Assembly: GCA_950097015.1 (NCBI GenBank)
Contig: CATNEN010000001.1
Location: 26,288,001-26,352,000, forward strand
Length of the DNA: 64,000 bases
Reading direction: 5' to 3'
Source of the DNA: Macrostomum hystrix
Taxonomy: Eukaryota; Animalia; Platyhelminthes
Part shown: positions 915 through 32,735 of the stretch, piece by piece
Numbering within the stretch: position 1 is the first letter of the stretch
Layout: each line of letters opens with the position of its first letter
Made by a program: the position numbers and the translations under genes
Notes under the pieces: generated by a model
The model's input: the letters and a program-made list of their open reading frames with translations, nothing else
What the model was told of the DNA's origin: nothing
Database searches by the model: none

Positions 915-3900
915 ATGGCAGCTGGAGGCCCAAGCGATGACCAGGTGAGGGACTCAGAGCCAATCACAGTGCTCTTTCTATTGCTCAAATATTGACTGAA
1001 CATGCCCACTGACTGTTGCATTGCCGACTCTCAGCTGCAGAGACTCGCCCAGCTGACCGTCCAGGGCGACTTTGGCCAGGTGCGCCAACTGGCGACGCGA
1101 CAGCTGGTGGCAAGCACGGATGGCAGCGGAAGAACCATCTTGATGCTGGTGGCCGACGCTCCAGAGACTCCCGTGGAGGCTGAGAAGTGCGTATTGTACT
1201 TATTTGGGTTGGACGCGGATCCGGGAGCGCGTGACGGGGCGGGTGACACGGCAGCGCACGTGGCAGCCAGACGGAACCACCTGCGGCTGCTGGCGCTGCT
1301 GCCGTTCGATGCGAAGTGGCTGCAGAACGAGCGAGGCGCGACACCGCTGATGGAGGCAGCTCGGGCCGGCAGCTGGCGAACCGCGAAACACCTGCTGCAT
1401 CTGCTGAGGCAGTACAGCTATAATGAGTATGAGGAGAGAGGCAACTCGAAGAGGGATCAGCTGCTCGGCCTGCAGGACAGCGAAGGGCAAACCGCGCTCG
1501 ACCTGGCGAGGCAGGGCGGCCACTCAGAGCTGGCCAGCGACATTGAGCGGTGAGTGATCAGTTCGCTGCTGTGCCCGATTCGCAGCATTGCAGCTGGGGT
1601 GGCCTGAGCATTGGTCTCAGCCCAGCCAATCAGAGCCAGTCAGCTGAAGCCGCTGTTGTTTGCATGGCCCAATGGGATTTCATTTCGGTGCAGTCGCTTT
1701 TGCATTTCTAGTTTAGCAACTCGAGCTAACTAATAAATCGATTGGAGATCACTCAAATGGGAACCTGTCAATCTGGGAAAGCACTAGAGATGCAGGGGAG
1801 TTTTGTGCATGCAACTGAATTCCCCATGTGTTTGTGTCTCCCACGGGCAGTTACACTTCCCAATATTCTGATTGGCTGAGATTTCACTTCCCTGAACTTC
1901 GCTGAGATTCGCTGACGTGCTCAGAGAAATGCCTGCTGAATGTTCAGCTGCCTCAGTCTCAGCCCACAGCCTTCAGCTGCCTCAGTCTCAGCCCACAGCC
2001 TTCAGCTGCCTCAGTCTCAGCCCACAGCCTTCAGCTGCCTCAGTCTCAGCCCACAGCCTTCAGCTGCCTCAGTCTCAGCCCACAGCCTTCAGCTGCCTCA
2101 GTCTCAGCCCACAGCCTTCAGCTGCCTCAGTCTCAGCCCACAGCCTTCAGCTGCCTCAGTCTCAGCCCACAGCCTTCAGCTGCCTCAGTCGCCCTCACCG
2201 AAAGCCCTGACCGAATCCTCTTGTCAAATGGCGCACAGCCGAACTGCAAGCAGAGCATTTCATGCAGCAAAACGCAATCAGCAAATCTCCAATGGCCAGT
2301 GCACATATTTGTGTGTGCCACATTGGCAGCACTGAGAATTGGCATTTCTCATGCCGCAGTGCTTTCTCGACCCCAACACTTTGCTGATGCAGCGAATTTG
2401 AGGCTGAGTAAAAATGAGCTTGTCTGAAACTGCTGCCTGTTTGTGTGCGATGAGAATTTCGCATTTGATTTCTTCTGCTTTGCAGGGAGATGCGGCTGCG
2501 AGTGGATGAATATGGCAGGATCTCCGGCCTGACAGACTCGGTGAGTGGCATCTGGGGTGCCGATGTGGGTGCAGATGAGCAGCTGTGCTCAAATTCTCCA
2601 CTCGCCTTTGCAGGAGGAGGCAGAGCGAAAGCAACTGAAGAGGCTGGCCTTAGCGGGCGACTCGGCGGGGCTGCGGCGAGCGGCGACCCGCGGCAACTGC
2701 GACCTGCCGGGCAGTTGGGGTTTGACAGCGTTAATGTGGGCAGCTTGGAACATCCAGTGCGCTGACGGGGCTCTGTGGCAGCATCTGCTGCAGCTCGGGG
2801 ACCCCACCTGTGCTGATATGCTTGCTGACAGTTGCATGCACTGGGCAGTCCAGGTTGGCAATTCTGCCGCAGTCTCGCAGCTGCTCCATGCCGGAGCCTC
2901 CGCCAACCCCAGGAATTGCAGGGAATCCACGCCCCTCATTTTAGCAGCCAAGTGGGCGCCCCGCGCAACCGCCGCCGCAGTCGGTCGGGCTCTGCTGGCC
3001 GCAGGGTCGGACTGGAGCCTGAAGGACATAGATGGTGAGACTGCGCTGGACTGGGCCACAATGCTGGGAAAGAGCGAACTGGCCGAGCTGCTGCGTGGGT
3101 GAGTTGCCATGGCGACTGAGAATGTCTCTCATCTTGCATTATCGCACTGAGTGGGTGCAGGTCGCAGTGTTTCACTGATCAGAGTCAAAGTGGGTTGCAA
3201 TTTGTAGCCAAAATATTTTCTGTCCAATCAGAGTTTTGCCAGCCTCTGCCACTCAAGCAGTTTTGCAGTGCCGTAAATAATAGCATTAATATTATCAGTG
3301 GGAATAAAGCTTTCCATTTGCTGCTTTTTATAGGTGAAAATGCGCACTGCGTACCGTGCGGGCAGCTCTCTCTGCCCCCTCGTCACCTCTCTGCCCCCTC
3401 GTCACCTCTCTGCTCCCTCGTCACCTCTCTGCTCCCTCGTCACCTCTCTGCCCCCCTCGTCACCTCTCTGCCCCCCTCGTCACCTCTCTGCCCCCCTCGT
3501 CACCTCTCTGCCCCCTCGTCACCTCTCTGCCCCCTCGTCACCTCTCTGCCCCCCTCGTCACCTCTCTGCCCCCTCGTCACCTCTCTGCCCCCTCGTCACC
3601 TCTCTGCCCCCCTCGTCACCTCTCTGCCCCCCTCGTCACCTCTCTGCCCCCTCGTCACCTCTCTGCCCCCCTCGTCACCTCTCTGCCCCCTCGTCACCTC
3701 TCTGCCCCCCTCGTCACCTCTCTGCCCCCTCGTCACCTCTCTGCCCCCCTCGTCACCTCTCTGCCCCCTCGTCACCTCTCTGCCCCCCTCGTCACCTCTC
3801 TGCCCCCCTGTCCCTTTAACCGCAGTTTCGCACAGGGCAGACAGGATGCTGAAATTTCAGTGTCTAACGCATGCAGCACAGCAGGGGTCCACTGTTCTCA

Positions 3901-6612
3901 TGCAGAATGCTGCAGATTCACTGCCCCATCTGGGAGGTGACCACCCCGCTTTCCCTGTCGACCCGCAGCCAGCGAGAGGCAATTCTGCCCATTCCGCTGA
4001 CTCCTGAGCACACACGCACACAGATGCCTTCAATAAAGTTGACAGCTATCCAAATACTTTTGCGGAGTCTGTCTCGGTTTCCTCACCTTCTTCAGTGATT
4101 TTCCACTGGCCAAGTGAGCCTCACTGACCAAAAACTGTCAGTTCAAAAGCAGTAGAAGGGAAGTGGGCTCGTATTTTTGTATTCACTTTTCCCCACCGCA
4201 TGTAAATCTGATATTCTCCTTCGGGTAGCATGTTTTGAGCAAGGACCACTAAACAACACCGCATGCGGTCAATTAAAAAAAGTTGACTTATACAAACATT
4301 CCGTTTACACATTCTGTTTATATATTTAACATTTTGATGCTCACCGATGAGTACGTCGGCAAAGCCGTCATCATCGGCAATGCTCGCTTCTCGTTCGTCC
4401 CGCGGGAAACTATAGACAGTACATCTCTCTCCACTGTCATAGCTGCTCTTGCAGTCTTTGACGCAGCACTTTCTTGGCTGATGCGAAATCCAAAGTCAGA
4501 TAAATCACAAATCACGCTAGCATCTGTCTTGTGCAGAACTCTTATCGATTTGGTGCCTCGGGCCTGAATGAAGCTAGAAATCAAAAGAAAAAATGTACGT
4601 GGTTAAAAATATTCATTTAAATGCAAATATCTTTGCTCCGAAGAAACTTTGAGAGCTGTAACTGAAATCATTCGATGCAAAATTAAAAGACGAATCCAGT
4701 GATATATTTCTTAGTAATTAAATAGAAACATTTAATTTCGACAGAAACATTCTTTTTTTAATAATTTTACTTTTTACTTATTTCTGCACAAAAATCACAA
4801 AACTTCACAAAAGTGCACAAAATTTTAACTGTTTCAACAAACTAAAACTGGGGATTTTTTCAGTACACATTTACATCTTCATTGAAACAATGGTCATTGT
4901 CCTACTTCGCTTGAACTACTTATTGGTTTCTGTAACTACTGAAAATTAAGACCTTAATGTAACCACTACATGATCAATTGGAAGAATACAAGCGAAGCCA
5001 GACAGTGAGTTCACACTAATTAAATGATATTTATATTCAAATTAAAATACGCGAAAGTTCGAATGTCAAATTGTGCGCGTACGCTACTGTACATCTGATA
5101 CCAAAACTACACAATTTCAAGACGAGAATGTGAAGACTAATTATTCGTATATTCTACTTAATCATTCAGCTTCAATTTTTTTACTTTATTTCGACATTTA
5201 GTCTGTTTAGCTTTTGTTTTATTTGTTTTATTAAAGAGGTGGAGATGAGACAGAGGAGATGAGACAGAGGAGATGAGACAGGAGAGATGAGACAGGGGAG
5301 TTTAGACAGGGGAGTTAAGACAGGGGAGATGAGACATGCTGAGCCATGCACTTCCTTCAAGAAGGTGCTATGAAATGCATTGTTCTCATTGCTAGCAGAA
5401 TCTACGACTCGTAATTGATACACATACAACTCATGTCGCTTATTCAGAGGGAAGGCTGGTAGGAGCCAGAAGTGACAAGTCAGTGTTGATATTATATTGC
5501 TCGTTGACAATCTCCACTTCCACCAACCAATGCCCATGCAGGTACGAAGGCAAGGAGTACTTTGAAAAGCCGTGAGTACATACATTGCTGCTGCTTTTGT
5601 TGCATTTCTGCTCTCTGCAATCTGCAGCTCTTCTGCCCACCTGCCGTTTGCTTTCATCAGCCACTAAAAATTCCTCAGGTTTCTCATTGAGCGCTGGGAT
5701 TCCGTCAAGCTCATCGGCAGGGGAGGCTTCGGCGATGTCCACGAAGTGCTCACGGACGAGGGCATCAGGTGCGCTGCGAAGACTCTCAGACTGCCAGTGC
5801 AGCTCGGCGACCTGGAGCCTTCAAAGAGAAAGGTGATCGACAAGTTTATTGAGGGCGAGAAGAACCTGTGCCAGCTGCAGCACCCCAACATCGTCAGCTT
5901 CTTGCACATCGCTCAGCCTGAGTATGCGACAGTTGTTGTGTTCATGGAGCTGCTGGATGGCTGCAGCCTGGAGAGATTTCTCGACTCCAAGCCGCTGGGC
6001 GAAGAAGCCATTCGAAAGTTCAGCGAGCAGGTGAGATTTGAGCAGCCTGCTCATGAGTGATGCAGTGAGTTGACTTTTTAGCGTCAGCCGACACCAGTTC
6101 CTCAACCCACCCACCTGCAGATCTGCAGCGCGCTGCACTACCTGCACAGCCGACAGCCGCCCGTGATCCACAGAGACATCAACTGCAGCAACATCATTGT
6201 GCTCGGTGACAACAGGCGAGTCAAGCTGATCGACTTCGGCCTGTCAATCAAGCTGGAGCAGTCTGTCAGCCACCTCACAGCCTCCACTGCCACACCGAAG
6301 GGCACTCTGAACTTCATGGCGCCAGAGCTGCTGGCACCAGACGATGAAGGCCACCCGCGGTACAGCAGAGAGTCGGACATCTGGGCGTTCGGCTGCTCAG
6401 TCTTCCAGATGGCCACGGGAGGCAGGCCCTACTCAAACGCCAGACACTATTACCACGTAGCTCAGAAGCTGGAGAAGGACGGAGCCCCCGCCCTGCCCGG
6501 CAGCTGCTCGGCGGAGCTGCGGGACTTCTACAGCCGCTGCACCGCCCGAGACCGCAAGGAGAGAAAGTCAGCAGAGGAGCTGTGCCTTCACGGCTTCCTG
6601 CTGCGACGGTGA
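915..6612 (+). CDS. Ankyrin-repeat + Ser/Thr (MAP3K/STE11-like) kinase protein; predicted exons 915-944, 1035-1549, 2486-2540, 2614-3098, 5679-6030, 6121-6612
   Basis: Ankyrin motifs (GDTAAHVAA, GATPLMEAA, GLTALMWAA, STPLILAA, GETALDWA). Kinase motifs GRGGFG, AAK, HPNIV, HRDINCSN, DFG, GT..FMAPE, DIWAFGC. All GT/AG junctions are phase-compatible, including 3098 to 5679 (phase 2). Extra exons in 3.1-5.6 kb cannot be excluded. Confidence 0.75.
1943..2190. repeat. 29-bp intronic minisatellite (ttcagctgcctcagtctcagcccacagcc), about 8 copies
   Basis: Tandem periodicity read directly. Confidence 0.95.
3368..3808. repeat. About 20-21-bp intronic minisatellite (cctcgtcacctctctgccc)
   Basis: Tandem periodicity read directly. 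Confidence 0.95.
5240..5335. repeat. Short 14-15-bp tandem repeat (gagacaggggagat-like)
   Basis: Read directly. Confidence 0.8.
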
Positions 6613-8447: not shown

Positions 8448-10031
8448 ATTGCATATTTTCAGCAGAGCAGCTCAACTACCGCCTCAGGCTGTGAGCTCGC
8501 GTCCCTCCCTCTGCCTCCATTCTCTGTGCTTGAGACGCACCGTGCGACCTTCCCCTGCCCCAGCAGTGCCAGTGGAAAACTGAGAGAAGGCTGGGCTGAG
8601 AGACAAAAGAGACAGACTGGCTGCTTATGATCTCAGAGCATTTCTATGAACTCAATTAGCCATAGGAAATGCCATCTGTATTGAGCAGTCTCTGAAATGA
8701 GTCTATTTCTCAAAGCAGGTATTCACTGCCAGGATGGCATTGTGCGGGGCTGCCCTCTCCCTCTACCCCACTTTGCCGTCTCTTACGATGCAGATTTCAT
8801 ACACGAGACACTACGAATCCTGAGCAGTTAAGGTGGTTCGCCAGGGACATTGGAATGGGGCTACTGTCATGCAGCGTGACCAGGTCATGAAAAGCCTGGC
8901 ATTCCTAGCACTTGCGGGCGGGCCGGGCCGGACCGGGCCGAGAACTCGCTGCGACAAACTCGAGAAACTGCGGGCTGCGGAGTGGCACCACCTGCCATCC
9001 CTGACACCTGCCATCCCTGACACCCTCTGAAGGGTAACGGGCAAAGCCTGCAGACTCGCAGTTTCAAGTCGACTCAAAGGCTGTCCAACTGAGCTGATGG
9101 CGCATTTCATTTCAGCTGCCTGGCAGCAAGCAAAACGCACTGCATGAAATCTGCTTTGAACCGAACATTTTCAGCAGCCTCTCAGACTCTGTCTTCTATT
9201 TCTCTGGAAGGACAACTGCCCACAAAACCCGGGATTATTGACACCTAAGCGAAAACGTAACAAAATTAAAAAAGGGCTTTGAACACAGGCTGGTGCAATC
9301 AAGGTAAACCTATAGAAGCACCGAAGCACCGAAGATCTAGAAGCTAGACCTAGAATTTCGGGCCTAGAACCTGCTGCGATAGTTTTGCATAGCATCATAT
9401 GGTATTTTGTATATTCGTATATAGAGCAGCAAGGGAATTATACTCGTGTGAGACTCTTCACAAAACCCTGACTTTTCAACTCAACGCCTACTTTAATTAC
9501 ATCGAGTAGACATCGTACAGCTCTGCTGCTGTGTACAAGTGCGAGCCACAAAGCACCTTGTTGAATAAATACTTGATAGGCAAATGGTTAACTCAGCTAC
9601 AGCACTGCACAAGCTTATGAAGGACGTGCATGCGTGCATCTCGTGCATGAACGACAAATACTACTGTGAGTAGTAGTATTTGATTTTGGAGTTTGAGTCA
9701 ATTTTCTATTTATATTTAGGTATAGAAAACTAAAAACACACAAGTGCTGAAGGTATTTTCCTGACTGGCTTCAATAAATGGCGACGTCAAACTCAGGTGA
9801 CCAAATATGGCCACAACGGCTTGTCTTGATGGTGTGCCACTGCATGTGCTAACCGACTAATTGAAGACAAAAACTTGTTCCAAAATTTCATCTTAGAAGC
9901 ATCATAGGGATCTTGGTACACTTTTATTAACTCAAATTTAGTCTCATTACAATGAAGCACTGATTTGTTCGTAACGAAACTTCTCAGTTCACACACTGAT
10001 CACGGCCTGGACCGTTGCAGCCTTCATCGCA

Positions 10032-11774
10032 TTAGCCGATTAGCTGTGGCACAGGCAGTTCACAATTCCCATTTACTTCAATCCTGCCCGACTCCGCACA
10101 GGTGGCATAGCAGCGGCCGTTCACTTTGAAGTTCCGACACGCCACGCACATGTCTGGGCCGGGTCCCCAGCATTCGTCCTGGCACTGAGCATCGCAGGTA
10201 GCGTTCCGGCAAATCTCGCTGCTGTCATCAAAGATCAGGTTTAGCATTGTAATATGAAATTCTCTAGTGACTTCCTGGATTTCTCGGATTCGATTGCTTG
10301 GATACCAGGCTCTGCAAAGACGACTAATATACTCAAGCACAAGGTTAGCAGTATATTGCAAGCTAGCTAGTCCGAGGTATCTCGTCTGGAGAAATAAAAT
10401 CTCAAAGGAATCCGTGACATGTTTGATATTACGTAGAAATCGGAGGTTATCTGTTAAGTGTTGAGATCTATGAATTACTAAATTGCCGTAAAAGTATTCT
10501 AAGTTCTCCAATGCTCTAAGGTTATTTAAGCTACTTAACTTATTAACATCCACAAGTAGAGAAAAATCGGCCCTCCAAATCGAACACTGCTCAGTCCTCA
10601 ATGAGTTTGCTAAATTGTCTGAAATCAAGAAGGAGACATTGCACGATTTGCAGGGCTTAGAGCTAATTTTTTCAATACACTTTGTGCAAACTCCTTCGAT
10701 AGGGACTTCCGCTGACGGACACTCGATTAAACAGCGCCTGCCGTCAGAGCTAACAAAAAAGGCCAGTGAGCACTTCTCTACGCAGATGTTGCCGATCTGT
10801 CGCCAAACAGTCACGCCAGTGCCATTTCCACTAGCGGTACTAGTATTCGACGGACAGGATTCTCTACAGACACCATTGAACAATACTCCTCTCCGACAGG
10901 CGAAGCACTCGTTGGGCCGGTTTGAGCAACCGCCAAGGCAGTCGTCGTGGCAGCAGTCTTCTTGGCCAGTGCTCGGGTTATGGAAGCATAGGTTCGTAGT
11001 GTTACACTTGCGCTTACGACACAGATGATTACTTTGGCAGCCATCAACACCGTCGGACCAGCAAGTTTGGTTATAAATTGGAGTTTGAGTACAGTTAGCG
11101 TGACAGGAAAGCAGACGATTGCAGGTACGCCTATCAATCACACCCGAGTTAGAGCTTTTCTTAAGACTTTGGCCTTCATCAGTAGTAACAGAAATCACTT
11201 CATCAAAATAGCGCTGGCCTGGTTCTTGAAGCAGGCTTGTCCAGTTGATGCTGTAGGACAGGTAGCAGTACAAGCTAGACTGCATTTGCGCACCATATAG
11301 AATAACATTTCTCCATGTGATAGCAGTCAACTTGGGCATTTCCAGCTTTCTCATGTTCGGCGACTTGAATATTCCAAACGTGTAGCCAGAAAAATTTTTA
11401 AAAGCGTAACCTCGGATGGTGCGCAAGTTGCGGAAGGTGACGCGCTCAAGGTTGACGTACTCGATCCATATTTTTCCGCTGATCTCCACAATGGAGTCAA
11501 GAAAGTCAGTTTGCATGCCTCGAATTTCATCGTCCAGCGGTTCGTATGTTAATTGGGTATAACCTATCTTGCTCAATGTCACGTCGCCGAAAACATACTG
11601 GCAGCCAGCTACTAAAGCCGTTAAGTCCGCCTGCAAGCGACTAACATTTCTGTGGGTCTCATAGCCGTAGCTGGTGATAGGTAAGGATTTGCAGATCCGG
11701 ATGCCAGAAGCAACATCGTCGTGTAACAGCGGAAGCAAAAGAAGCAACCGAAAAACAAGCTGCAGGAAATTCAT
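10032..11774 (-). CDS. Secreted EGFR/ErbB-ectodomain-only protein, copy A (signal peptide, L1, furin-like Cys-rich, L2, partial domain IV; no TM or kinase); intronless CDS
   Basis: 580-aa ORF with hydrophobic N-terminus. Motifs CQYVFGDVTL, FLDSIVEISG, NLRTIRG, LEMPKLTAI, INW, DCCHDDCLGGC, CFACR and CWGPGPDMCVACRNF are all EGFR-like. Ends at TAA with no hydrophobic segment. Confidence 0.9.
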   Translation of the reverse strand: MNFLQLVFRLLLLLPLLHDDVASGIRICKSLPITSYGYETHRNVSRLQADLTALVAGCQYVFGDVTLSKIGYTQLTYEPLDDEIRGMQTDFLDSIVEISGKIWIEYVNLERVTFRNLRTIRGYAFKNFSGYTFGIFKSPNMRKLEMPKLTAITWRNVILYGAQMQSSLYCYLSYSINWTSLLQEPGQRYFDEVISVTTDEGQSLKKSSNSGVIDRRTCNRLLSCHANCTQTPIYNQTCWSDGVDGCQSNHLCRKRKCNTTNLCFHNPSTGQEDCCHDDCLGGCSNRPNECFACRRGVLFNGVCRESCPSNTSTASGNGTGVTVWRQIGNICVEKCSLAFFVSSDGRRCLIECPSAEVPIEGVCTKCIEKISSKPCKSCNVSFLISDNLANSLRTEQCSIWRADFSLLVDVNKLSSLNNLRALENLEYFYGNLVIHRSQHLTDNLRFLRNIKHVTDSFEILFLQTRYLGLASLQYTANLVLEYISRLCRAWYPSNRIREIQEVTREFHITMLNLIFDDSSEICRNATCDAQCQDECWGPGPDMCVACRNFKVNGRCYATCAESGRIEVNGNCELPVPQLIG

Positions 11775-14055: not shown

Positions 14056-17000
14056 TCGGCATTCGAGTAATCGCTCTTGTTGCTGATCAGGAGACAACGC
14101 AATGGGCTGATCTCTCCACACTGGTAAGTATTATCTGCAGTGTTAAGCAAATTACTTAATGACTTTTACTCGTTTGTTTTGACAGGTCTCGCCATCCATG
14201 CCCTTTTTTTCACCACCCTGTGAGTCAGAAGCCGGTTTATGTGATTGTTGATGTACCACATTGCCTGAAAAACCTACGCTATGCGCTTACGAAAAACGAT
14301 ATTGCCTTTGATAATGACAAGCTGGCAAAATGGCAGCACGTTGTGAACTTTTATGAAACCGACAAAAGTCGCCCACTTCGATTGGCAAGTCGACTGAATA
14401 ATGTTCACATCACCTTGCCGCTTGGTCAGAAGATGCGCGTTTCCATCGCAGCTCAAATACTTAGCCATTCGGTTGCAAGCGGAATAAAAACTCTGGTGCA
14501 CCATAAGGAAACGGAGCTCATCGCCCTGCAGACGGCAGAGTTTCTACAGCGCGAGAACGATATCTTCGATATGCTGAACTCTGCCCACATGCACGACAGA
14601 GGCTTCAAGCAAGCAGTCTGCCGCGAATCCTTAGCTGAGCAGACTATCGAACTGCGCAAAGCCGAGGCCTTTCTGCAGAGTTTGCGAATCCTTAGCTGAG
14701 CGGACTATCGAACTGCGCAAAGCCGAGGCCTTTCTGCAGAGTTTGCGAATCCTTAGCTGAGCGGACTATCGAACTGCGCAAAGCCGAGGCCTTTCTGCAG
14801 AGTTTGCGAATCCTTAGCTGAGCGGACTATCGAACTGCGCAAAGCCGAGGCCTTTCTGCAGAGTTTGCGAATCCTTAGCTGAGCGGACTATCGAACTGCG
14901 CAAAGCCGAGGCCTTTCTGCAGAGTTTGCGAATCCTTAGCTGAGCGGACTATCGAACTGCGCAAAGCCGAGGCCTTTCTGCAGAGTTTGCGAATCCTTAG
15001 CTGAGCGGACTATCGAACTGCGCAAAGCCGAGGCCTTTCTGCAGAGTTTGCGAATCCTTAGCTGAGCGGACTATCGAACTGCGCAAAGCCGAGGCCTTTC
15101 TGCAGAGTTTGCGAATCCTTAGCTGAGCGGACTATCGAACTGCGCAAAGCCGAGGCCTTTCTGCAGAGTTTGCGAATCCTTAGCTGAGCGGACTATCGAA
15201 CTGCGCAAAGCCGAGGCCTTTCTGCAGAGTTTGCGAATCCTTAGCTGAGCGGACTATCGAACTGCGCAAAGCCGAGGCCTTTCTGCAGAGTTTGCGAATC
15301 CTTAGCTGAGCGGACTATCGAACTGCGCAAAGCCGAGGCCTTTCTGCAGAGTTTGCGAATCCTTAGCTGAGCGGACTATCGAACTGCGCAAAGCCGAGGC
15401 CTTTCTGCAGAGTTTGCGAATCCTTAGCTGAGCGGACTATCGAACTGCGCAAAGCCGAGGCCTTTCTGCAGAGTTTGCGAATCCTTAGCTGAGCGGACTA
15501 TCGAACTGCGCAAAGCCGAGGCCTTTCTGCAGAGTTTGCGAATCCTTAGCTGAGCGGACTATCGAACTGCGCAAAGCCGAGGCCTTTCTGCAGAGTTTGC
15601 GAATCCTTAGCTGAGCGGACTATCGAACTGCGCAAAGCCGAGGCCTTTCTGCAGAGTTTGCGAATCCTTAGCTGAGCGGACTATCGAACTGCGCAAAGCC
15701 GAGGCCTTTCTGCAGAGTTTGCGAATCCTTAGCTGAGCGGACTATCGAACTGCGCAAAGCCGAGGCCTTTCTGCAGAGTTTGCGAATCCTTAGCTGAGCG
15801 GACTATCGAACTGCGCAAAGCCGAGGCCTTTCTGCAGAGTTTGCGAATCCTTAGCTGAGCGGACTATCGAACTGCGCAAAGCCGAGGCCTTTCTGCAGAG
15901 TTTGCGAATCCTTAGCTGAGCGGACTATCGAACTGCGCAAAGCCGAGGCCTTTCTGCAGAGTTTGCGAATCCTTAGCTGAGCGGACTATCGAACTGCGCA
16001 AAGCCGAGGCCTTTCTGCAGAGTTTGCGAATCCTTAGCTGAGCGGACTATCGAACTGCGCAAAGCCGAGGCCTTTCTGCAGAGTTTGCGAATCCTTAGCT
16101 GAGCAGACTATCGAACTGCGCAAAGCCGAGGCCTTTCTGCAGAGTTTGCGAATCCTTAGCTGAGCGGACTATCGAACTGCGCAAAGCCGAGGCCTTTCTG
16201 CAGAGTTTGCGAATCCTTAGCTGAGCGGACTATCGAACTGCGCAAAGCCGAGGCCTTTCTGCAGAGTTTGCGAATCCTTAGCTGAGCGGACTATCGAACT
16301 GCGCAAAGCCGAGGCCTTTCTGCAGAGTTTGCGAATCCTTAGCTGAGCGGACTATCGAACTGCGCAAAGCCGAGGCCTTTCTGCAGAGTTTGCGAATCCT
16401 TAGCTGAGCGGACTATCGAACTGCGCAAAGCCGAGGCCTTTCTGCAGAGTTTGCGAATCCTTAGCTGAGCGGACTATCGAACTGCGCAAAGCCGAGGCCT
16501 TTCTGCAGAGTTTGCGAATCCTTAGCTGAGCAGACTATCGAACTGCGCAAAGCCGAGGCCTTTCTGCAGAGTTTGCGAATCCTTAGCTGAGCGGACTATC
16601 GAACTGCGCAAAGCCGAGGCCTTTCTGCAGAGTTTGCGAATCCTTAGCTGAGCGGACTATCGAACTGCGCAAAGCCGAGGCCTTTCTGCAGAGTTTGCGA
16701 ATCCTTAGCTGAGCGGACTATCGAACTGCGCAAAGCCGAGGCCTTTCTGGAGAGTTTGCGGTTTATTCCTAAGAGTGGCAAGGCAGAAAGGTCAACAATG
16801 AAGTTTAAAGACGCCTGGGGCCTGTCAGCCGCTGCTATACGTGAGCTGTCGATTGCGCTGATCGATGAAGGTCTCGACTTTGTCTGCACTCGCAGGCTGA
16901 CCCAGGACCACGTGGAAGTGAGTTTTTAAATAATTTCAATATCTGAAAATGAGATCAGAGAGATACAATAATGTGTGATATGACTTTTTAAACTAATTAT

Positions 17001-17778
17001 GTTCCTTCGATAATGTTAACTGCGGGTTCACAAGTATTACAGGAAATCGCAATCCAATCCATTTCAGAATCTATTCAGCATCATTAGAGTCCGAAATGGC
17101 TTCAATGAGAAGCCTAAACTGGCTGCATTTGTCGGAGCGCTGAGATCAGAGGCTGCAAGCGGACTTGATCGACCGGATTCCGTAACAAGGAATTGTGAAG
17201 ACGACGAATGCTCTGCCGCAGTGACAATTAATCTCTCGCATTTAGCTGGAGCAGACATCAGCAGCAGTGGATCTTTAGGCGAGTCTACTACTAACTTTGC
17301 CGCGCTGAAAACATCACACCCAAATTATCCAGATCCGGTTCTTGCTGAGTCGACTGAGTACGTTGGAGGCTCCGTACTCAAGAATAGTCGCGTCTTGGAG
17401 TGCTCCGAGTGCAAAGAGGTGCTGACTGCGGCTTCAGGAGTGCACTTCAACAACAAGTCGCTCTGCCATGCGCTTAAAGGATTGACAAATCCGTCAGCCG
17501 CAGCCCTTCAAGTGTTTGCAAGAATGGGGGCATTATTTGTGGCGCAGATTGAGTCGTGCGCTTTGCATCGAAAAGTGGCTGCAGAGATTGTGAACAAGTT
17601 TGTTTTTGCTGAGATCTACCTACCAACATGCAGTGTGCATTATGCTGAGGTGCATAACAGTGTTTTCTCTGCGTTTGCTCGCTTGCGATTGCACCACTGG
17701 TGTCGCGATAAGATGCGGAGCCTGCGAGAAGCAGCTCTCAGGCGAAGTGCTGTTCGGAAATGCAAGAAATTTAACTAA
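14056..17778 (+). mobile_element. P-element/THAP9-type transposase, 5'-truncated and disrupted; exons about 14056-14123, 14186-16917 (interrupted by array) and 17068-17778
   Basis: VIALVADQ, DVPHCLKNLR (D-x-x-H), KMRVSIAAQILSHSVA, NDIFDMLNS and TRRLTQDHVE|NLFSIIRVRNGFNEKP (catalytic E region) are P-transposase signatures. GT/AG introns present. Apparent +1 frameshift in the T-run at 14204-14210. Confidence 0.9.
14623..16760. repeat. 61-bp tandem array (about 35 near-identical copies) made of transposase coding sequence
   Basis: Unit shifts by 1 nt per 60-nt line. The transposase frame (AEAFLESLRFIP) resumes after the last copy. Confidence 0.95.
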
Positions 17779-18658: not shown

Positions 18659-21600
18659 TCAGGAATTGGCGTTTTTGCCATGGGCGCCCAGCGTCATACG
18701 ACAGGCTCTGCCCTGCACCCTATATAGCGCCTCCAGGTTTTTCTGGATGCCCATGGCACTGGCCCAGATGAGGCCAGCGTATGCGACGGACGGTCTAATG
18801 ATCGCCGTGTAAATCCACCAAAGGTTCTTGGGGGTTAGCCCCCAAGTGGTGCCCACGGCACGCCTGACTTGCGCCAGTATTGGGCCCTCTTGGCCTTTGT
18901 GGTGATGTGCGGGGTCCAGTTAAGCCTATGGTCTAGCAGGAGACCAAGGCACCGGACCTGCTTTTCATGGCAATATTCTTGCCATAGAGAGTCAGAGGCT
19001 TAATGGTCCAGAGCAGTCTGCTGGTAAACATAACCGCAACGGTCTTGGACTCAGAGAGTCGGAGCCCGCATTGGTCCGCCCAGCGCACCGCCCTGTTGAT
19101 AAAGCCCTGGATGAGGTCCCTGGTGGTTTCCGCCGAGGGGCCCGCGCAGATGGCGGTCACATCGTCGGCATATCCCACCTTCAGGACTGGGTCAGGACGA
19201 GTGCTTTTCAGCAGCTCATCCATGACGAGATTCTGCAGCAGTGGGGTGAGGACGCCGCCTTGGGGCCCTCCTCTTAGGACAGGTGCCGAGAGCAGCCTGC
19301 CTTCGAGGTGGGCCACCACGTGGCGATGCCGGATCATGTACATGACCCAGCGAACGAGGTGGGGGTGAGTGGCCCTGGAAACCAGGGCCTCCTCAAAAGC
19401 TTCGAAAACAACGTTATCGAAGGCCCCCTCAATGTCTAGGAAGACAGCCAGGGCAAAACCGCTGCCCAGCACTGCCTTCTCGAGAGTCTCCACGATGCAG
19501 TGGAGGGCGCTCTCCGTGGACCGGCCCGCCCGAAAGGCGTGCTGGTTTGGGGAGAGCGGGGCCCGCCCTAGCTCTACAGTAAGAAGGCGCCAGTCTTTCC
19601 ATGAGCTTGAGGCAGGTGGAAGTCTAGCTTATCGGGCGATAAGACTTGACCGAGCGATAGTCGCCTTTGGCGGGCTTCGGGATGAAGACGACCCGGGCTT
19701 CGTGCCACAGCGCTGGTACATAGCCCAGCACGATGCAGGCCCGTAGAAGTCTGCAGAAGAGATGGAGGAAGCGGCCATTTTTGACCGCTTCATGCAAAAA
19801 GGCCGGATATATACCATCTGGCCCAGGTGCTTTAAAAGGGTTGAATGACTTAGCCGCGCGAACGATGCGGTCATTCGTGACGAGTGACTGAGCCAGGCCC
19901 TGACCTCCACGCGAGTGGTCGTCTGGGCCAAAGTGCGCCGGTACACTCGGGAAGAAATGCCCTAGCATAAGCTCGAGCGTTTCCTCCGGGCGCTCCGTGA
20001 TCCAGCCGTCTGGCTTTTTGATCGATGAGAGCTTGGAGAAGCGGTCGTTGGTGAGCGCCTTTACCACGCGGGCCGTGGGCCGCGAGCCCTCAAGCCCTTC
20101 GCAGTATTGTCGCCACTTGTCCGCTTTTGCCCTTCTGACCCGGCCCTTAAACTCATGGATGGCGCGAGTATAGGCCTCTTTGTCATCAGGGTCGTGCGAG
20201 GTTTTCAGCTTCCTCTGGAGAGCCTTAGCTCGGCGTCTCAGGACTCCTAGCTCGGGGTTCCACCAGGGGGGCCGATTTTTTGCCTTTGTAGGCTTTGAGC
20301 GGGCAAGTCATTTCGTAGGCCTCTGTGATGGCGCCGCCCAGCAGGGCAGCCACTCCATCTAGGTCCTGCGTGGTTGCCATGGCCATGGAGGGGTCGGAAT
20401 CCCGAAGGCCCTCATGCAGCTTTTGGCTGAACGCGGGCCAGTCGGTGTTTCTGACATTACGCCTCCAAATAGGCTTTTGCTTCTTATCGGGGGTACCGAT
20501 GTTGAAGCGAATGAAGCGGTGGTCCGAGAGCGAGCTTTCGGTCTCCCACACCTCCCGCCCCAGCACCCTTGGGAGGATGCCGGGTGAGGCCAGGGTGACG
20601 TCAAGCACCTCAGCCCACCGCCCATTGTCGAAAGTGGGCGTGTTGCCCACATTGCAGAAGTTAAGAGGCGTGCCGCTAACGAAGGCCAGGAGCTCTTCGC
20701 CGCGGTCATTGATTTTTGAGCTGCCCCAGTGGGTGTGATGCGAGTTTGCATCTCCCGCGAGGAGCAGCTCAAAGTTTCGTGCCCTGGCGAAATCGGGTCT
20801 CATCCACGCATTTAAGGCTTTTGCAGCATAGATCAGTGATCTAGGGCGGATGGAGTCTGCCATGCAGAAGCAGTCATAGCCAGCAGGAATGTTGCTTGGC
20901 TTGTTTTTTATAACTGGGCTCCTGCACAAGTACAAGGCATGGCATCATGCGCTCTGTCGTGCGCATCAGATTGACTGATGCTGCCACGCAGTGATGGGTG
21001 TTAACTTGCAGACATGATATTCCGGGGATCATCATGCAGGCAGAGGTCTACTTGGAGGGGGACTCAGCCAGAAGGCGGTCCTCCTCCTCCGGGTCGATGT
21101 CGGTAGCCATGGGCTCCTCCGTGCCCCGGCCCCGAGCCAGAGGCGGGAACTCGACGGGGTCAGCCTCCCAGTCCCCACCCCCGGCCCAGAGCCCAGGCCC
21201 AGAGTCGCCCTCAACCGGTGCCGACACCGCACCCTGGGCCGGCGCTCGAAGGGCCCTGCTCGATGGAGCTGGGCACCTTAGAGGCCTCCCACGTAGCCCT
21301 TGGTTGCGGCGCCTGCCCCGGTGGGCCACCGCGCATCTCAGCGCGCAGCTGGGCCATCTTGGCGGTTCGCACCACCTCGGAGGCCCGCTGAAGAAGGCCC
21401 CGGCGCTTTGTGATGCGCGCGGGGCGACGCTCAGAGCTGCCAGCGATGGCACGCTCTGGCCTTTTTTGGCGAGACGACTGGGCCCTGCCCCCAGTCCCAG
21501 CCTCGGGGTCCGAGGACCCTTCAGTGGCCTGTACGGTGGTGGGCCCGGTCTGACCTAGAGTTTTATCTGCCTCGAAGGCGAAGATTTTGGTCTTCCACAG

Positions 21601-21681
21601 ACCAATGCAGATATTGGCGCCATCTGGGTAGCGGCGTGTCCATTGCTCGGACAGGCCCAGAATGGTGGTGAAGCCGGTACC
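18659..21681 (-). mobile_element. Degenerate non-LTR retrotransposon, Loa/R1-like (ORF1 remnant, APE, RT), frameshifted and 3'-truncated
   Basis: APE motifs GDANSHHTHWGS, NTPTF, LDVTL, SDHRFI. RT motifs KAPGPDGIYP, YRPIS, FLDIEGAFD, PQGGVLTPLL, GYADD. Post-RT TWGLTPKNLWWIYTAIIRP. Split across several frames. Confidence 0.88.
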
Positions 21682-24590
21682 GTTGTTGTTGTTGTTGGCG
21701 TACGGATCCCTCGCTAGGCATATGGGGGGCGCGCCAGCGCGCCCGTCGCCTCGACGAAGATCCGCACCCAATTCGGGTCCTCCCACAGGAGGGACATTGA
21801 GCCAGTAGAAGGGAGGAGGTTGCGGCGTTGATCGGCCCACCTGGGGCAGTCGAGCAGGAAGTGCCGCGTGTCCTCCTCGGGAGCGTTGCAGTGAGGGCAA
21901 GACGCAAGGCGCGCGGTTCGCCCTGAGTTGGAACAGCGCCACCTCCGCCGCACGAGGCCAGGCACGGCCGACCTGCAGCCGTTTGCCGCCGCTGAGTCGA
22001 TGTGGGTGGTCCAGAGGGACTAGGTTTTCGTATGCTCGGTCGTCTTCCGCTTGACCTTGCCGCCTGAGAGCAGCTCTGAGCGCCGCGACCGGTGTTGGCA
22101 TGTTATCTTGCGGGAGCGTGCAGCCCTCGCGGGCCAGAATGTCGGCTTCCTCGTTGAGCGCAAGCCCGGCGTGGCCCGGCACCCAGATTACAGTGGGCCG
22201 GTGGTCCGTGGTGAGCTGCTCCAGCAGAATGGACGCCTATGCAGTTGCGTGGTCTGTCTGGCACTTACACTGTGACTGGAGCCGGTCGAAGAGCGCTTGG
22301 GAGTCGAACAGCAGCCAGACGGCCATGCAGGGGCGTCCGTGGAGAATGGCAAGGGCCGCCTCGAGACCAGCTGCGGCCGCCGCGGCCTCCGCGGTCGTTG
22401 AGCAGGTTAGGTGCCCCGCTGGGACACTGCCTCTGATGTCCCGGCTCCCTGGGGCCCGCTGCCGAATCAGGTAGCCGCCTCCTCCATTACGGATGCCTTC
22501 CTCTGCCGCGCCGTCTTTCCAGATCTGCAGGTCAGGCGGGTCCTCCTGCCTCAGGCGGTCTAGCAGCTCCAGGGTTTTTGTCCTCCGAACAAGTGGTGCC
22601 TCGTCGCGGCTGGTTTCGGCACGGACGAAGCGGGTCTGGAGACTACGGGACCAGGGGTGACGGAAACAGGTGGGGGGAATGCGGCCTTCCACCCGGTCGC
22701 GGCCTCCTTCCACAGTGCTCAGTATCTCGATGGCCGACTCGCGCCAAGAGCTTCGGGTGCCCGCGGTCCTCGCCTTGAGTCTGGTGGGGGTGGCGGACGG
22801 GCTGGCCAGATCGCGGAGTAGATGCCCTTCAGGGAACTGCTGGCAGCGCAGGGGCAGCTCCGCGGCCCTCTGCCGGCAGATGGTGTTGAACGGCTGGAGG
22901 CCGGCGTCACAGATTAGGGCGCGGGCCCGGGCTCCGGCGCCTACCCCTGTGATGATCCTAGCAGCGGCATACTTGGCGGATTCGAGGCGTTCGCGGTGGG
23001 TGGGGGCCAGGAACGGCCACCAAAGTTCAGCCCCGTAAAGCCCTGCCGGACGAACGTAACTGCAGTAGAGGCGGTGTAGAGTCTCAAAGCTCGCACCCCA
23101 GGATCGCGCGGCAACGCAGCGGAGAGCCGCGAGCCTCCTGTGCAGCGCCGCGAGAGACCTCTTTGCTTGTTCAGCGAAATTGAGCTGTGAGTCGATCGTT
23201 ACTCCCAGGACCTTGATCTCGCGCATGCAGGAGACGGTGTGTCCGCCGGCTTGCAGAGTGCCGCCGAACTTGCCGTTGAGCTCAGCCGGGTGGGTACTGA
23301 TAAGGATGACTTCAGTCTTCGCCGGCGCCAGCTTGAATTGGTGTTCCTCGCACCAGCCACTCACCGCGTCGATCGCGGCCTGCATCTGTACTGTAGCCGT
23401 CAACGGGGAGGCGTCTGATGTCTTCACAGTGAGGTCGTCCGCGTATTGGATGGGCCAACACTTGGGTGCCGCCTGCTGAATGGCCCCGGGCAGGGTCCGA
23501 GTGGCGATGTTGAAGAGCAGAGGCGAGAGCGGACTGCCTTGCGGCACGCCTTCTTTTAGGACTCGGAGCCGACTGAATTGTGTTCCCCAGCGGACGCAGG
23601 CACGCCGGTCAGCCAGAAACGATCGAAGCCACCGCATCCAGCCGGCCGGTGCTCTGGCCCGAGCGAGCTCACGCAGGACCCCTAGGCGCCAAGTGCGATC
23701 GAACGCCGCTTGAAAATCGAACGCGGCAAGCAAGGTCCTTGTCATTGGCCGTGTCTGAAGAGAGTCGAATGCTGGTTGAGCCAGCTGGGCCACGGCGTCG
23801 AGGGTGCTGCGACCCGCTCGGAAGCCTGACTGCTCATCGGGGATCAGGCCGTTCTCTTCGGCCCAGGCATTCATGCGATTGTTGACCATGGCCTCGAGGG
23901 TCTTGCCTACACAGCTCAGCAGAGAGACTGGGCGGTAGGAGGCTGGGTCGTGGGTCGGCTTGTCTTTCTTAGCGATTGGACAAATGATGGCCGTGCGCCA
24001 CGCTGAGGGGACTCTCCCCTCGCGCCAGCTCCTGTTCAACAGAGTCAAAAGCGCCCGCCGGCCTTCGTCTTGTAGTTTCTGCAGAAAAGCTGGGAGGATG
24101 CCATCCTTTCCAGGGGCGTAGCCAGCGGAGCTCCGGAGGACGTCCGCCAGTTCCGCCATGTGAAATGGAGCCTCGCGTGGGTCTTCGCTGCATGTTCCGA
24201 GCGCTTTACGGACCTCGAATCTGGCTCCTTGCTGGTCTGCTTTCGGGACTCTGAGCCGGCTGACTGCCGCGTAGGTTTTAATCGCCAGGTCCGCTTTTTC
24301 CCTGTCCGTGGTTGCTGTCTTTTCGTCCTGCCGTAGCGGCGTGTCCGGGAGCGGCTGCCGGGACCTACCGTCCAGCGCCCGGATTGTCCGCCACACCTTG
24401 GATTCAGGTGCGCGGGTGGATAAGCCGGAGACGAATTGCCGCCAGGCTGCGGCCTTGGCCTGACTATAGACACGATCCGCATTCTCGTGAGCTGTGCGGT
24501 AAGCCGCCGCTGCGTCCTCATCTCCCTGGGCAGCCCTGGAGTCTGCTAGCGTCTCACGCGTGGCCCGTTGGTCAACGGAGGCCCCCTTCC
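21682..24590 (-). mobile_element. Ingi/I-group LINE, 3' portion: RT, RNase H, CCHC knuckle, (AAC)5 tail
   Basis: APGKDGI, YRPVSLLS, QSGFR, DFQAAFD, GVPQGSPLSP, QYADD. RNase H motifs KDGA, AEAAA, FDSQA, PGHAGLALNEEAD. Knuckle CPHC...HFLLDC. (GTT)5 at 21682-21696 on the + strand. Confidence 0.92.
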
Positions 24591-25673
24591 CGCGGGGACC
24601 GATGTCGCAAAGTGCCTCCACCCACCGGATGCCGTCTCGGCGCCCGCACCCAGACCTTCGGGTTTTCGGGTGGGCAGCAGACCAACCCCGACGAGTCTCG
24701 CTGCCGTCTTCTACTGTCGGGGGACATTGAGCAAAATCCTTGACCTTCTCAAGCCGACATCCGCATCCTGCAATGGAACCTCAACGGTCTGCGGATGCGG
24801 CGCCCGGCTCTCGAACATCTACTAGAGGAGCTTCAAGTGGACGTGGCCGTCCTTCAGGAAACAAATCTGACAGCGCAAGATCACACCCCTAAGATGGCAG
24901 GCTTCTCTGCACACCGGCGGGACCGTGCCGTTCACAGGGGGGCAGCAGGCCATCACGGCGGGCTCCTCACCTTAGTCAGGCACGGGCTTGCCCACGAAGT
25001 GGCCCAGGGGGCATTGGGAGTCCCAGAGACCGCAGCGCTGGAGCACCTCATGATCCGGCTCCTCGGCAACAAGACACGCCCTCTCTACATCAGTAACGTC
25101 TACAGACCGCCGGTCCGCACTTCGGCAAGAGACGAGCGGGACGGCAGGCTGCATACCGACATGTGGCCAACAGAAAGCAACTGGCTGCTGCTCGGAGATC
25201 TGAATGCGCACGGTAGTTGGGATGAGCTAAGAGACCCAGACGCGATAGGCGAGGAGCTCGAAGACTGGATGACCAACCACAGCTGGACGACCTTGAACGA
25301 CGGAAGTCCGACGCGTGTGAGCCCAGGAGGAGCCGAGTCGACCCCGGACGTTTCGCTGTGTCACGCAGAGATGTCCAGCCGTGTCAGCTGGAACGTAAAA
25401 GACACCATGGGGTCAGATCACCTACCAATTCTACTGGCAGTGGCCTTCACGCAACCGAAAGGCAGCCGCAAACCTGCCCAGTACAATCTTAAACGTGCGG
25501 ACTTGCCGCTATTCGCCGGAAAGGCCGATGAGCAACTCCGTCACTGGTCGGCCGATGCTTTCGGATCGATAGAGGCCGCCAACAGCGAGTTCTGCAGACG
25601 CCTTCTCTCCGCTGCCAGCTGCATCCCACGAGGGAGTGTCAAGAAACCCAAGAGCTGGTGGAATGACAGCTGT
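24591..25673 (+). mobile_element. Inverted 5' portion of the same Ingi-like LINE: 5' leader, 2A-like peptide, APE endonuclease
   Basis: LLLSGDIEQNP*P then ILQWNLNGL, LQET, VYRPP, GDLNAH, NDGSPT, SDHLPI, ending at KSWWNDSC. This is the point where the minus-strand RT ORF (ASVDQRATRE) would continue. Confidence 0.85.
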
Positions 25674-26309
25674 CGAGCATTCTGCTGTCGTGCAGTACGT
25701 TGGCCCTCTGTTTTAGGATATTTTCTCTATCCGACAGTACTGCTTAACCAAAGTCTGCAGGTCAAACTGACCCGTCACAATCGTTACTTTTCGCTGACGT
25801 TGCCTAATAACTGACAGAAGGGAGCTACAAACGTTCGCATTCTCAGTCGGAACACGGCATCAAAGCCTTGATTCCATTAAATGGTACTTCAATGGAACAC
25901 GGTGCCTGTTCAGCCCAGCACATCGTCTCTCTGCGGCTGGTATTGACTATTTTATTTCATACATCGTCTACATGAGAGAATGTCATTCAATACACTTTTC
26001 GTCAAGTCCTTGCATCCAGCAGCGGTTAGCCAAAACAATGCAATCATACTCAGACTCAAAGATCAGTTGCAGGGGACTCTAGACTGCGAATGGGCAGCTG
26101 TATGATAGTCTCAGGCCCTTGGCGAGCCGGCAAATCCACATCCTGCCAGCAGATGCTGTACAATAGCCGCAGCGTGGCTGAGGCTCAGGCTGCATGATGC
26201 TCTCTCCCTTGTCTTTCGTTCAGATCAAGCATCCAAACCTACTTTGCTGGACTCGATCTTAGCTCGTCTATAGCATAACAGAAGTAGTAGTGATACCACA
26301 AGCTACCGC

Positions 26310-27895: not shown

Positions 27896-28410
27896 ATGTC
27901 TGAATGTTATCGACTTTTTCGATTGTATCGATTGTGTCATGGCATTTTTGTGCAAAAATTTGTGCATAATTTTGTCAGGTACATCTCAAAGAAGTGTTAA
28001 AATACTGCTAAGCGTGAAGGATGGCGAAAGCTGCAGCTGAACAATTGTTTTTCAAATCAAAACAATGTGCTTTGAACACAGGCTGATGTAGTCAAGCGAG
28101 ATCTATAGAAGAACCGAAGCTAGAAGCTAGAAGCTAGATCTAGAAGCTAGACCTAGAACGGGCATTTGCTGCGATACTTTTACATAGGTGTGGAATGTTA
28201 TAGTACTCGTATTTCGTATATTCGGAATAAGCGAAGTAATTATTTTTACAGACAATCAAACCTGCAGCACCTCTATCCTATCATTGAATGTATGATGAAT
28301 GAATTGAATTAATGTATGAACTAGAAACACACAAGTGCTGAAGGTATTTTCCTGACTGGCTTCAGTAAAAGGCGATGTCAAACTCAGGGGACCAAATATG
28401 GCCACAACGG

Positions 28411-28587
28411 TGTAAGGTGTGCGGTGATTCATTCTTGCATCGCGTCGTAAGTTAGCTCCGTAAATTGTGCAATGCAATGTACACTCTCTGGTGTACATCG
28501 CCAAATATAAAGTCGCTCACTTGAGGCTTTAGTCACCTCGTGTATTCTCGGTTCTCGCGCAGGTCTCGCCTTCTGACTTAGTTTACA
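28411..28587. mobile_element. 177-bp solo LTR (TGTAA...TTACA) with 4-bp TSD ACGG, Gypsy/Ty3-like
   Basis: Flanked by acgg on both sides. The paralogous empty site ccacaacggcttgtc is at about 9811. Confidence 0.75.
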
Positions 28588-28804
28588 ACGGCTTGCCTTG
28601 ATGGTGGGCCACTGCATGTGCTAACCGACTAATTGAAGACAAAAAACTTGTTCCAAAATTTCATCTTAGAATTATCATAGGGATCTTGGTACACTTTTAT
28701 TAACTCAAATTTAGTCTCATTACAATGAAGCACTGATTTGTTCTAAACGAAACTTCTCAGTTCACACACTGATCACGCCCTGGACCGTTGCAGCCTTCAT
28801 CGCA

Positions 28805-32308: not shown

Positions 32309-32735
32309 ATGGCTGCTGGAGGCCCAAGCGATGACCAGGTGAGGGACTCAGAGTCAATCACAGTGCTCTTTCTATTGCTCAAATATTGACTGAGCTTGCC
32401 CACTGACTGTTGCATTGCCGACTCTCAGCTGCAGAGACTCGCCCAGCTGACCGTCCAGGGCGACTTTGGCCAGGTGCGCCAACTGGCGACGCGACAGCTG
32501 GTGGCAAGCACAGATGACAGCGAAAGGACTGTGTTGATGCTGGTGGCCGACGCTCCAGATACTCCCGTGGATGCTGAGAAATGCGTATTGTTCTTATTTG
32601 AGTTGAGCGCGGACCCGGGAGCGCGTGACGGGGCGGGCGACACGGCAGCGCACGTGGCAGCCAGGCGAAACCACCTGAGGCTGCTGGCGCTGCTGCCGTT
32701 CGATGCGAAGTGGCTGCAGAACGAGCGAGGCGCGG
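32309..32735 (+). pseudogene. Truncated paralog of the ankyrin-kinase gene (exon 32309-32338 plus part of exon 2 from 32429)
   Basis: Close copy of 832-1340 that breaks off at ...NERGA into a minisatellite. Confidence 0.85.

Follow-up and report, generated by a model that had tools for sequence, protein, structure and literature searches.

A 64,000-nucleotide (nt) stretch of Macrostomum hystrix DNA, referred to as the window, carries on its minus strand two genes, copies A and B, that resemble the ectodomain of an epidermal growth factor receptor (EGFR). Probably, these are EGFR duplicates cut short in domain IV, and their products would be secreted, signalling-dead binders with a predicted ligand face under diversifying selection. 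A relic of domain IV follows each stop codon, the lesions are common to both copies, the reading frame before them is open, and the amino acid changes between the copies concentrate on alternating strand positions. Comparison with Macrostomum lignano shows, at the level of sequence, that both copies descend from an EGF receptor with a transmembrane segment and a kinase.

Two EGFR ectodomain genes end early in domain IV

Copies A and B sit within a 2.7-kb duplicated block of 90.7% identity. Their features are as follows; P0003 and P0004 are M. lignano receptors described below.

10032-11774, minus strand: copy A, a single-exon open reading frame (ORF) of 580 amino acids (aa) plus TAA, with L domain 1 (L1), furin-like region, L domain 2 (L2) and the start of domain IV
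28805-30547, minus strand: copy B, 580 aa, architecture as in copy A, 89 aa differences, same junction
11703-11774, minus strand: putative signal peptide of copy A (about aa 1-24), from hydrophobicity; the N-termini of P0003 and P0004 align
10782-10856, minus strand: shortened dimerisation-arm region, aa 307-331, with two N-glycosylation sequons

The coding codons of copy A run from 11774 to 10035, with TAA at 10034-10032, and those of copy B from 30547 to 28808. In both, Pfam recognizes receptor L domains, a furin-like region and positions 1-38 only of the 132-position domain IV profile, this last match scoring just under the cut-off. The predicted structure is a weak model, with a predicted local distance difference test score (pLDDT) of 59 and a predicted template modelling score (pTM) of 0.43. 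Its best Foldseek matches are EGFR/ErbB ectodomains, and ESM Atlas matches are EGFR-type clusters only. The dimerisation arm has 23 residues between its cysteines, compared with 26-28 in five full-length receptors, lacks the aromatic tip residues, and is modelled with pLDDT below 50 at residues 311-322.

The top 19-aa hydropathy window of copy A begins at residue 3. A transmembrane segment was not found in the copies, whose best internal hydropathy is 1.1-1.2 versus 3.06 in P0003. The hydrophobic N-terminus and the absent transmembrane segment make secretion of the products likely. Neither Pfam nor tblastn of the window found a tyrosine kinase domain in copies A and B. Hence, the copies are separate genes without a kinase, as in dedicated decoy-receptor genes of the SDR/DR2 type. 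Another intronless gene lies at 34676-35638; it encodes a secreted-type EF-hand protein with a KDEL C-terminus, which we take to be reticulocalbin/calumenin-like. Given this neighbour, the single-exon EGFR-like genes need not be retrocopies.

The closest relatives are full-length receptors

A HMMER search of 1.84 billion representatives yielded 106 matches, two of which are far ahead. P0003 is the M. lignano EGFR Mlig012838 (PAA79361.1; 1090 aa, 48% identity to the copies), and P0004 is M. lignano Mlig030557 (1091 aa, 36% identity). Both are receptor tyrosine kinases, each with domain IV, a transmembrane segment and a kinase. They are also the only close relatives among the 29 matches of a protein search by alignment. 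Word-based protein searches returned no close relative and two distant vertebrate matches at 319-1015 aa, and no close relative below 319 aa; exact look-up of A, B and the neighbouring EF-hand protein in the protein collection found none of the three.

A tree built from 19 ectodomains places A and B together as sister to P0003 at 96/96, in a clade with P0004 at 100/100, with long branches flagged. The cysteines number 38 in copy A, in copy B and in the stretch of P0003 that corresponds to them before the cut. The preliminary description of this DNA had proposed that the secreted form arose by truncation of a longer receptor. The tree and the full-length sister P0003, which carries both transmembrane segment and kinase, bear this out. 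P0110 (M. lignano, 549 aa), another database entry for the sister receptor, is cut off by a frameshift early in domain IV; that end is an independent truncation or an assembly error.

Remains of domain IV follow the stop codon

Four features describe the region around the stop.

10032-10064, minus strand: junction, comprising the last coding cysteine (571), a 4-nt insertion, an out-of-frame C-H-S, an 8-nt insertion and TAA
9984-10031, minus strand: in-frame remnant of one domain IV module, within the 3' untranslated region (UTR), CDEGCNGPGRDQCVN and a stop; from translation, tblastn and frameshift-aware alignment
28659-28804, minus strand: relic and 3' UTR of copy B, which differs from A at 5 positions in the 149 nt from the stop codon onward
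9949-9984, minus strand: second, more decayed and weakly supported domain IV module relic in a shifted frame, RSFVTNKSVLHC

Both ORFs end in NGNCELPVPQLIG followed by TAA, and the same frame then reads CDEGCNGPGRDQCVN up to a TGA. When the post-stop DNA is aligned to the M. lignano receptor P0109 with frameshifts allowed, it scores 48.0, which none of 150 shuffles reaches (mean 4.1, maximum 23.6). The relic corresponds to the next module of P0003 and P0004. Alignment of the 3' flanks to full-length EGFRs, suggested earlier and run here with the M. lignano receptors, reaches through the TAA into the relic; specifically, tblastn of P0003 continues to 9993. The pattern C...C.GP....C occurs four times in the six frames of the window, once per ORF and once after each stop. 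The in-frame relic at 10031-9984, as first described, is thereby upheld by translation and shuffling, and its counterpart in copy B, placed at about 28757-28804, is found at 28804-28757. The same junction lesions occur in A and B, so the claim of a truncation common to both copies also stands.

The TAA stands where the receptor has its Glu583 codon. The spacing from cysteine to cysteine over the junction is 33 nt versus 21 nt in P0003, P0109 and P0004, which amounts to 12 extra nt. The 4-nt insertion, whose size is derived from this spacing, lies at about 10055-10052, the C-H-S in the +1 frame at 10051-10043, and the 8-nt insertion at 10042-10035. A CH[SPE] motif appears in 571 of 100,000 shuffles of the junction 24-mer. 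The 12 extra nt would be explained by imperfect local duplications of 4 nt and 8 nt around the out-of-frame C-H-S. The preliminary description had read the terminal PVPQLIG as C-H-S thrown out of frame by small duplications. The C-H-S in the +1 frame, the 12 extra nt and the GCTAAT present twice near the junction agree with it; the duplications, at 4 nt and 8 nt alike, are imperfect. The protein C-terminus falls at a complete cysteine module, one cysteine before the next module. As the cut comes right after a complete module, it presumably leaves no unpaired cysteine, judging by the pairing pattern that we assume for ErbB cysteine modules.

The second module is less certain. The shifted frame RSFVTNKSVLHC that had been described can be read in A (9984-9949), but in B it meets an extra stop after RSFV. 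Against a profile of 138 homologous modules, the score was reached by 5 of 300 shuffles for A and 1 of 300 for B, and the best profile path took another frame for the first half. Anchored alignment to P0109 found nothing at the second module. Further downstream, a relic of the transmembrane segment sought by alignment scored 0, and no 19-aa window exceeds a hydropathy of 2.2 in 6.8 kb (A) or 2.9 kb (B). Within the window, no minus-strand transmembrane or kinase exon lies downstream of A (10 kb) or B (28.8 kb).

Three other readings of this region were rejected. The sole kinase match in the window, a plus-strand gene in two ORFs at 5668-6612, is not the lost kinase because it lies on the opposite strand and is only 23-24% like the EGFR kinase. 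The P0003 kinase domain contains the terminal words ELPV and PQLI (10038-10061) in the same order, and MAFFT split them onto two of its motifs; both words in order appear in 4 of 20,000 shuffled tails. A kinase origin is rejected, since these bases encode C-H-S where it is expected, hold the local repeats and lie between two domain IV modules; the match remains an unexplained coincidence. A changed genetic code is rejected because TGA comes 15 codons later.

A likely transcript end behind the relic

Twelve runs of three studies contain the stretch, and contigs of seven runs were aligned. These are contigs rather than raw reads, the RNA or DNA status of the runs is guessed, and the best DNA run may be the source of the window. 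Gap-free contigs cross the stop in six of the seven runs with at least 31 letters on each side; X12 has only 28 letters on one side. In runs X3, X4 and X5, all differing letters of the bridging contig are away from the junction. No contig joint at the stop was found among the seven aligned runs. Upstream of 11775, runs X9, X11 and X12 have no cover and were not used as evidence.

9886-9928, minus strand: AATAAA at 9928-9923, followed by a likely poly(A) site near 9886, from X3 contig ends

In run X3, two contigs end loosely in poly-T at 9886, although the genome is not rich in A at this point. This marks a likely poly(A) site 37 nt past the AATAAA and about 145 nt after the stop. Since contigs bridge the stop and poly(A) tails begin after AATAAA, an assembly error and splicing past the stop are both unlikely. 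A bypass of the stop, by splicing or readthrough, or indels that are assembly errors would mean that a longer receptor is made, and we regard this as highly improbable. The check was made on contigs, not raw or long reads, and contigs drop rare variants, which leaves such a bypass some room. Against it, the same lesions occur in both copies and in contigs of six runs from three studies, the bridging contigs of X3, X4 and X5 differ only away from the junction, readthrough would stop 15 codons later at TGA, and the window has no transmembrane or kinase exon downstream. Splicing round the stop and erroneous indels, the two outcomes that the preliminary description had named as refuting it, were thus not seen in these contigs.

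Just past the poly(A) site, 31 nt (9793-9823) are identical to part of a 14.2-kb X5 contig, and the same loose ends are present in X3 and X4. The flanks of that contig look by eye like a cytoplasmic dynein heavy chain. The 31 nt are possibly a short captured fragment.

The truncated genes probably form a family

On 2.2 kb, the number of aligned contigs in four runs is 67, 95, 66 and 26, and single sites are covered by as many as 6 variant contigs. Variant contigs are numerous over the L domains, and one main contig per run goes across the stop. In X4, several flank contigs have a depth of 69-81 and the bridging contig one of 1075. This hints at about a dozen copies if X4 is DNA, with the reservation that depth is not copy number and that alleles or strains may add variants. 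A contig of a diverged paralog in X4, X5 and X11 matches 10102-10211 and then departs. In X4 and X5, 20 of its 110 nt differ, in a part where only 1 of 180 nt distinguishes A from B, which indicates that the shared tail is confined to the truncated family. The paralog may be the intact receptor; its 30 visible letters are, by eye, closer to P0109 than copy A is.

Differences concentrate on the predicted ligand face

The face was defined as the exposed positions on nine L-domain repeat strands of the G-x-L-x-I-x-x type.

11292-11588, minus strand: four L1 strands of the predicted ligand-facing sheet (aa 63-69, 100-106, 131-137, 155-161), 10 of 16 exposed positions differ
10245-10565, minus strand: five L2 strands of the predicted ligand-facing sheet (aa 404-410, 430-436, 455-461, 476-482, 504-510), 10 of 20 exposed positions differ

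Copies A and B differ at 20 of 36 exposed face positions, compared with 1 of 18 buried positions and 53 of 286 positions in the rest of the L domains (p=5e-6). Against the polar rest (41/175), the face stands out with p=2e-4. By strand offset from +2 to +5, the differences number 0, 6, 1 and 8 of 9. The proportion of non-synonymous differences (pN) on the face is 0.37 versus a synonymous proportion (pS) of 0.08 (p=0.006), about 4.8 times the L-domain synonymous rate. Many of the changes alter charge, among them E105R, V433R, L460E, V479E and E481K. All 38 cysteines are unchanged between the copies. The alternating pattern along the strands and the unchanged cysteines indicate that the substitutions were not blind to protein structure. 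Ligand binding by this sheet, assumed from EGFR structures, is consistent with the EGFR contact residues named in PMC1618406.

We then compared the face with that of the full-length receptors. Identity to P0003 is 6-7/36 on the face versus 147/286 (about 51%) elsewhere (p=7e-5). Between P0003 and P0004, there is no such drop (12/36 versus 105/286, p=0.85). The divergence of the face from P0003 argues against unchanged ligand specificity. It bears on the classical explanation of decoy or dominant-negative action, in which the ectodomains would soak up EGF/neuregulin ligands of the animal itself or pair with membrane EGFR, and variation of the face would tune affinity. This explanation has precedents in kinase-less insulin receptor decoy genes and in soluble ErbB isoforms acting as decoys (PMC7253209 and PMC13107152, respectively), and the entire clamp of L1, cysteine-rich region 1 (CR1) and L2 is retained. 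However, divergence from the full-length receptor is greater on the face than elsewhere, the dimerisation arm is reduced, and a survey lists only two EGF-type ligands in M. lignano (PMC4914847), which gives little reason for many variable decoys. On balance, we judge classical decoys unlikely. A further, tentative idea is an amplified and variable secreted repertoire: a constant disulfide scaffold maintained by conversion would carry two hypervariable L-domain faces under positive selection, directed at fast-evolving targets (pathogen, mating, self/non-self) and not at EGF.

Open frames and possible gene conversion

Copies A and B differ at 144 nt, with 89 non-synonymous and 23 synonymous codons; the 580 open codons and 89 amino acid changes counted in the preliminary description are exact. 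Only 41 of 20,000 neutral simulations stayed stop-free. The ORFs are collinear: their 1740 coding nt contain no net indel, whereas the 5' flank has 11 indel events over 665 aligned nt. Sites at which P0003 and P0004 agree differ less often between the copies than the others (21/207 versus 68/365, p=0.008). Divergence between A and B is 11.6% in L1, 3.6% in CR1, 11.3% in L2, 0.6% in the last cysteine-rich part, 3.4% in the 3' UTR and 9.0% in the 5' flank, and L-domain synonymous sites differ by about 10%. Gene conversion, suggested by the nearly identical 3' ends, may have homogenized the truncated end, so some of the 89 changes may be older than the truncation.

The copies could also be transcribed young pseudogenes, in which the L-domain differences date from a full-length stage and the broken tail was spread later by conversion. 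The overall ratio of non-synonymous to synonymous rates (dN/dS) near 1 and a tail far more alike than the 5' flank or L domains (0.6-3.4% versus 9-12%) would fit this. Yet the lesions, of which there are several, are confined to about 130 nt after codon 571, with none in the 1713 nt before and the border at the module end. This distribution makes the argument for function independent of timing. In addition, the paralog differs at 20/110 nt where A and B differ at 1/180, which confines the tail to the truncated family, and a poly(A) site is used right behind the relic. Disabling changes across the former coding region, as in a pseudogene, were not found in the 1740 nt of either copy. We consider pseudogenes quite improbable; the pattern of changes supports functional copies. 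The earlier argument that a frame open through 89 changes implies function holds for the open frame itself (41/20,000, no net indel, 38/38 cysteines), and is weakened where it relied on the number of changes and their timing.

Several points weigh against truncated, secreted binders under diversifying selection. Whole-gene dN/dS, at 1.1-1.3, cannot be told from 1; the case for function therefore draws on how the changes are distributed, not on how many there are. Beyond the face, pN and pS are equal (0.097 and 0.099), and purifying selection on the scaffold is visible only in the cysteines, the buried strand positions and the sites conserved between P0003 and P0004. The face template was set after the differences had been seen, and sliding it by +2 gives 22 instead of 20. 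Selection is judged from two sequences only, the structure model behind the face is weak (pLDDT 59, pTM 0.43), and ligand binding by this sheet is our assumption from EGFR structures, made without a residue-level match. The alike 3' ends suggest conversion, which blurs timing. All runs are contigs of guessed RNA or DNA status, the best DNA run being perhaps the window's source. Finally, secretion and binding are predictions from the amino acid sequence.

Proposed course of events

Under the preferred reading of truncated duplicates, a receptor copy would have acquired the stop and two small insertions directly after a complete cysteine module. The remainder of the receptor would have decayed, a poly(A) signal about 100 nt downstream would have come into use, and the truncated gene would have been amplified. 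As the L-domain faces then diverged, conversion may have preserved the likeness of the cysteine-rich scaffold and the tail. Outside the cell, L1 and L2 of each protein would close on a ligand like a clamp, and the protein would sequester or mark it. The shortened arm would make pairing with a membrane receptor less likely. The ligands of A and B probably differ, and need not be the receptor's own EGF. If the variation of the face means new targets, the genes would constitute a natural family of variable binders on an EGFR scaffold. If they form a variable repertoire, the relic behind the stop would record the birth of the family almost base by base.

Other features of the window

The 3' flank of copy B has a 181-bp insertion at 28404-28591 with a 7-bp target-site duplication (ACAACGG), absent from A. 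Between the copies lie a P-element/THAP9-like transposase remnant with a TNP-like GTP-binding domain (14163-17778), split by a 61-bp tandem array at about 14623-16760, and pieces of non-LTR (long terminal repeat) retrotransposons on both strands, with reverse transcriptase and endonuclease (18900-25800). A second duplicated block of 91% identity (826-1340 and 32205-32734) has ankyrin-repeat ORFs, of which the copy at 32390 breaks off early; a further ankyrin ORF is at 2545-3102. Amid long simple repeats, 45066-52025 and 59959-61614 contain exons belonging to a RhoGAP gene and a TALE (KN) homeobox gene.

Comparison with known systems

Truncated splice forms of EGFR occur in Schistosoma; a literature search for them returned no such paper. 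No description of a truncated EGFR family was found in the literature outside subscription papers, and supplementary tables of flatworm genome papers may list it. A metazoan EGFR survey, which counts 8 EGFRs and 2 ligands in M. lignano, covers kinase-bearing sequences only (PMC4914847), so truncated EGFR genes would be left out.

The M. lignano receptors P0003 and P0004 resemble the copies in the ectodomain (48% and 36%), and P0003 shares the 38 cysteines up to the cut. Unlike the copies, they continue through domain IV to a transmembrane segment and a tyrosine kinase, and their faces show no special divergence from each other. The soluble ErbB isoforms p110 sEGFR, sHER3 p85 and herstatin are like the copies in that the ectodomain ends within or before domain IV and is followed by a short unique tail; decoy activity is described for such isoforms (PMC13107152). 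Caenorhabditis elegans DAF-2B is a comparable soluble product, also described as a decoy (PMC7041946). The isoforms and DAF-2B come from the receptor's own locus, through splicing, polyadenylation or cleavage, whereas the A and B loci, as far as the window shows, cannot make a full receptor.

The C. elegans irld family, including hpa-1 and hpa-2, is similar to the copies in being an expanded set of kinase-less L-domain genes. Some irld genes lie in hyper-divergent regions, and they modify EGF or insulin signalling (PMC9262388). They are only weakly homologous to receptors (PMC9262388), whereas the copies have the full EGFR L1-CR1-L2 unit and group with one particular flatworm EGFR, in a tree built without irld sequences. 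The insect insulin receptor decoys SDR and DR2, like the copies, are separate genes that descend from a receptor tyrosine kinase and have lost its kinase. SDR acts as a secreted antagonist of the receptor, and DR2 is about 300 million years old and conserved (PMC7253209). SDR and DR2 belong to the insulin receptor family and are ancient, whereas the copies derive from EGFR, are young enough to retain a relic, are multi-copy and have a fast-changing face. Insulin receptors have known kinase-less decoys, which are old and of an origin that can no longer be read; here, the conversion from receptor to soluble protein is still legible in the 3' UTR.

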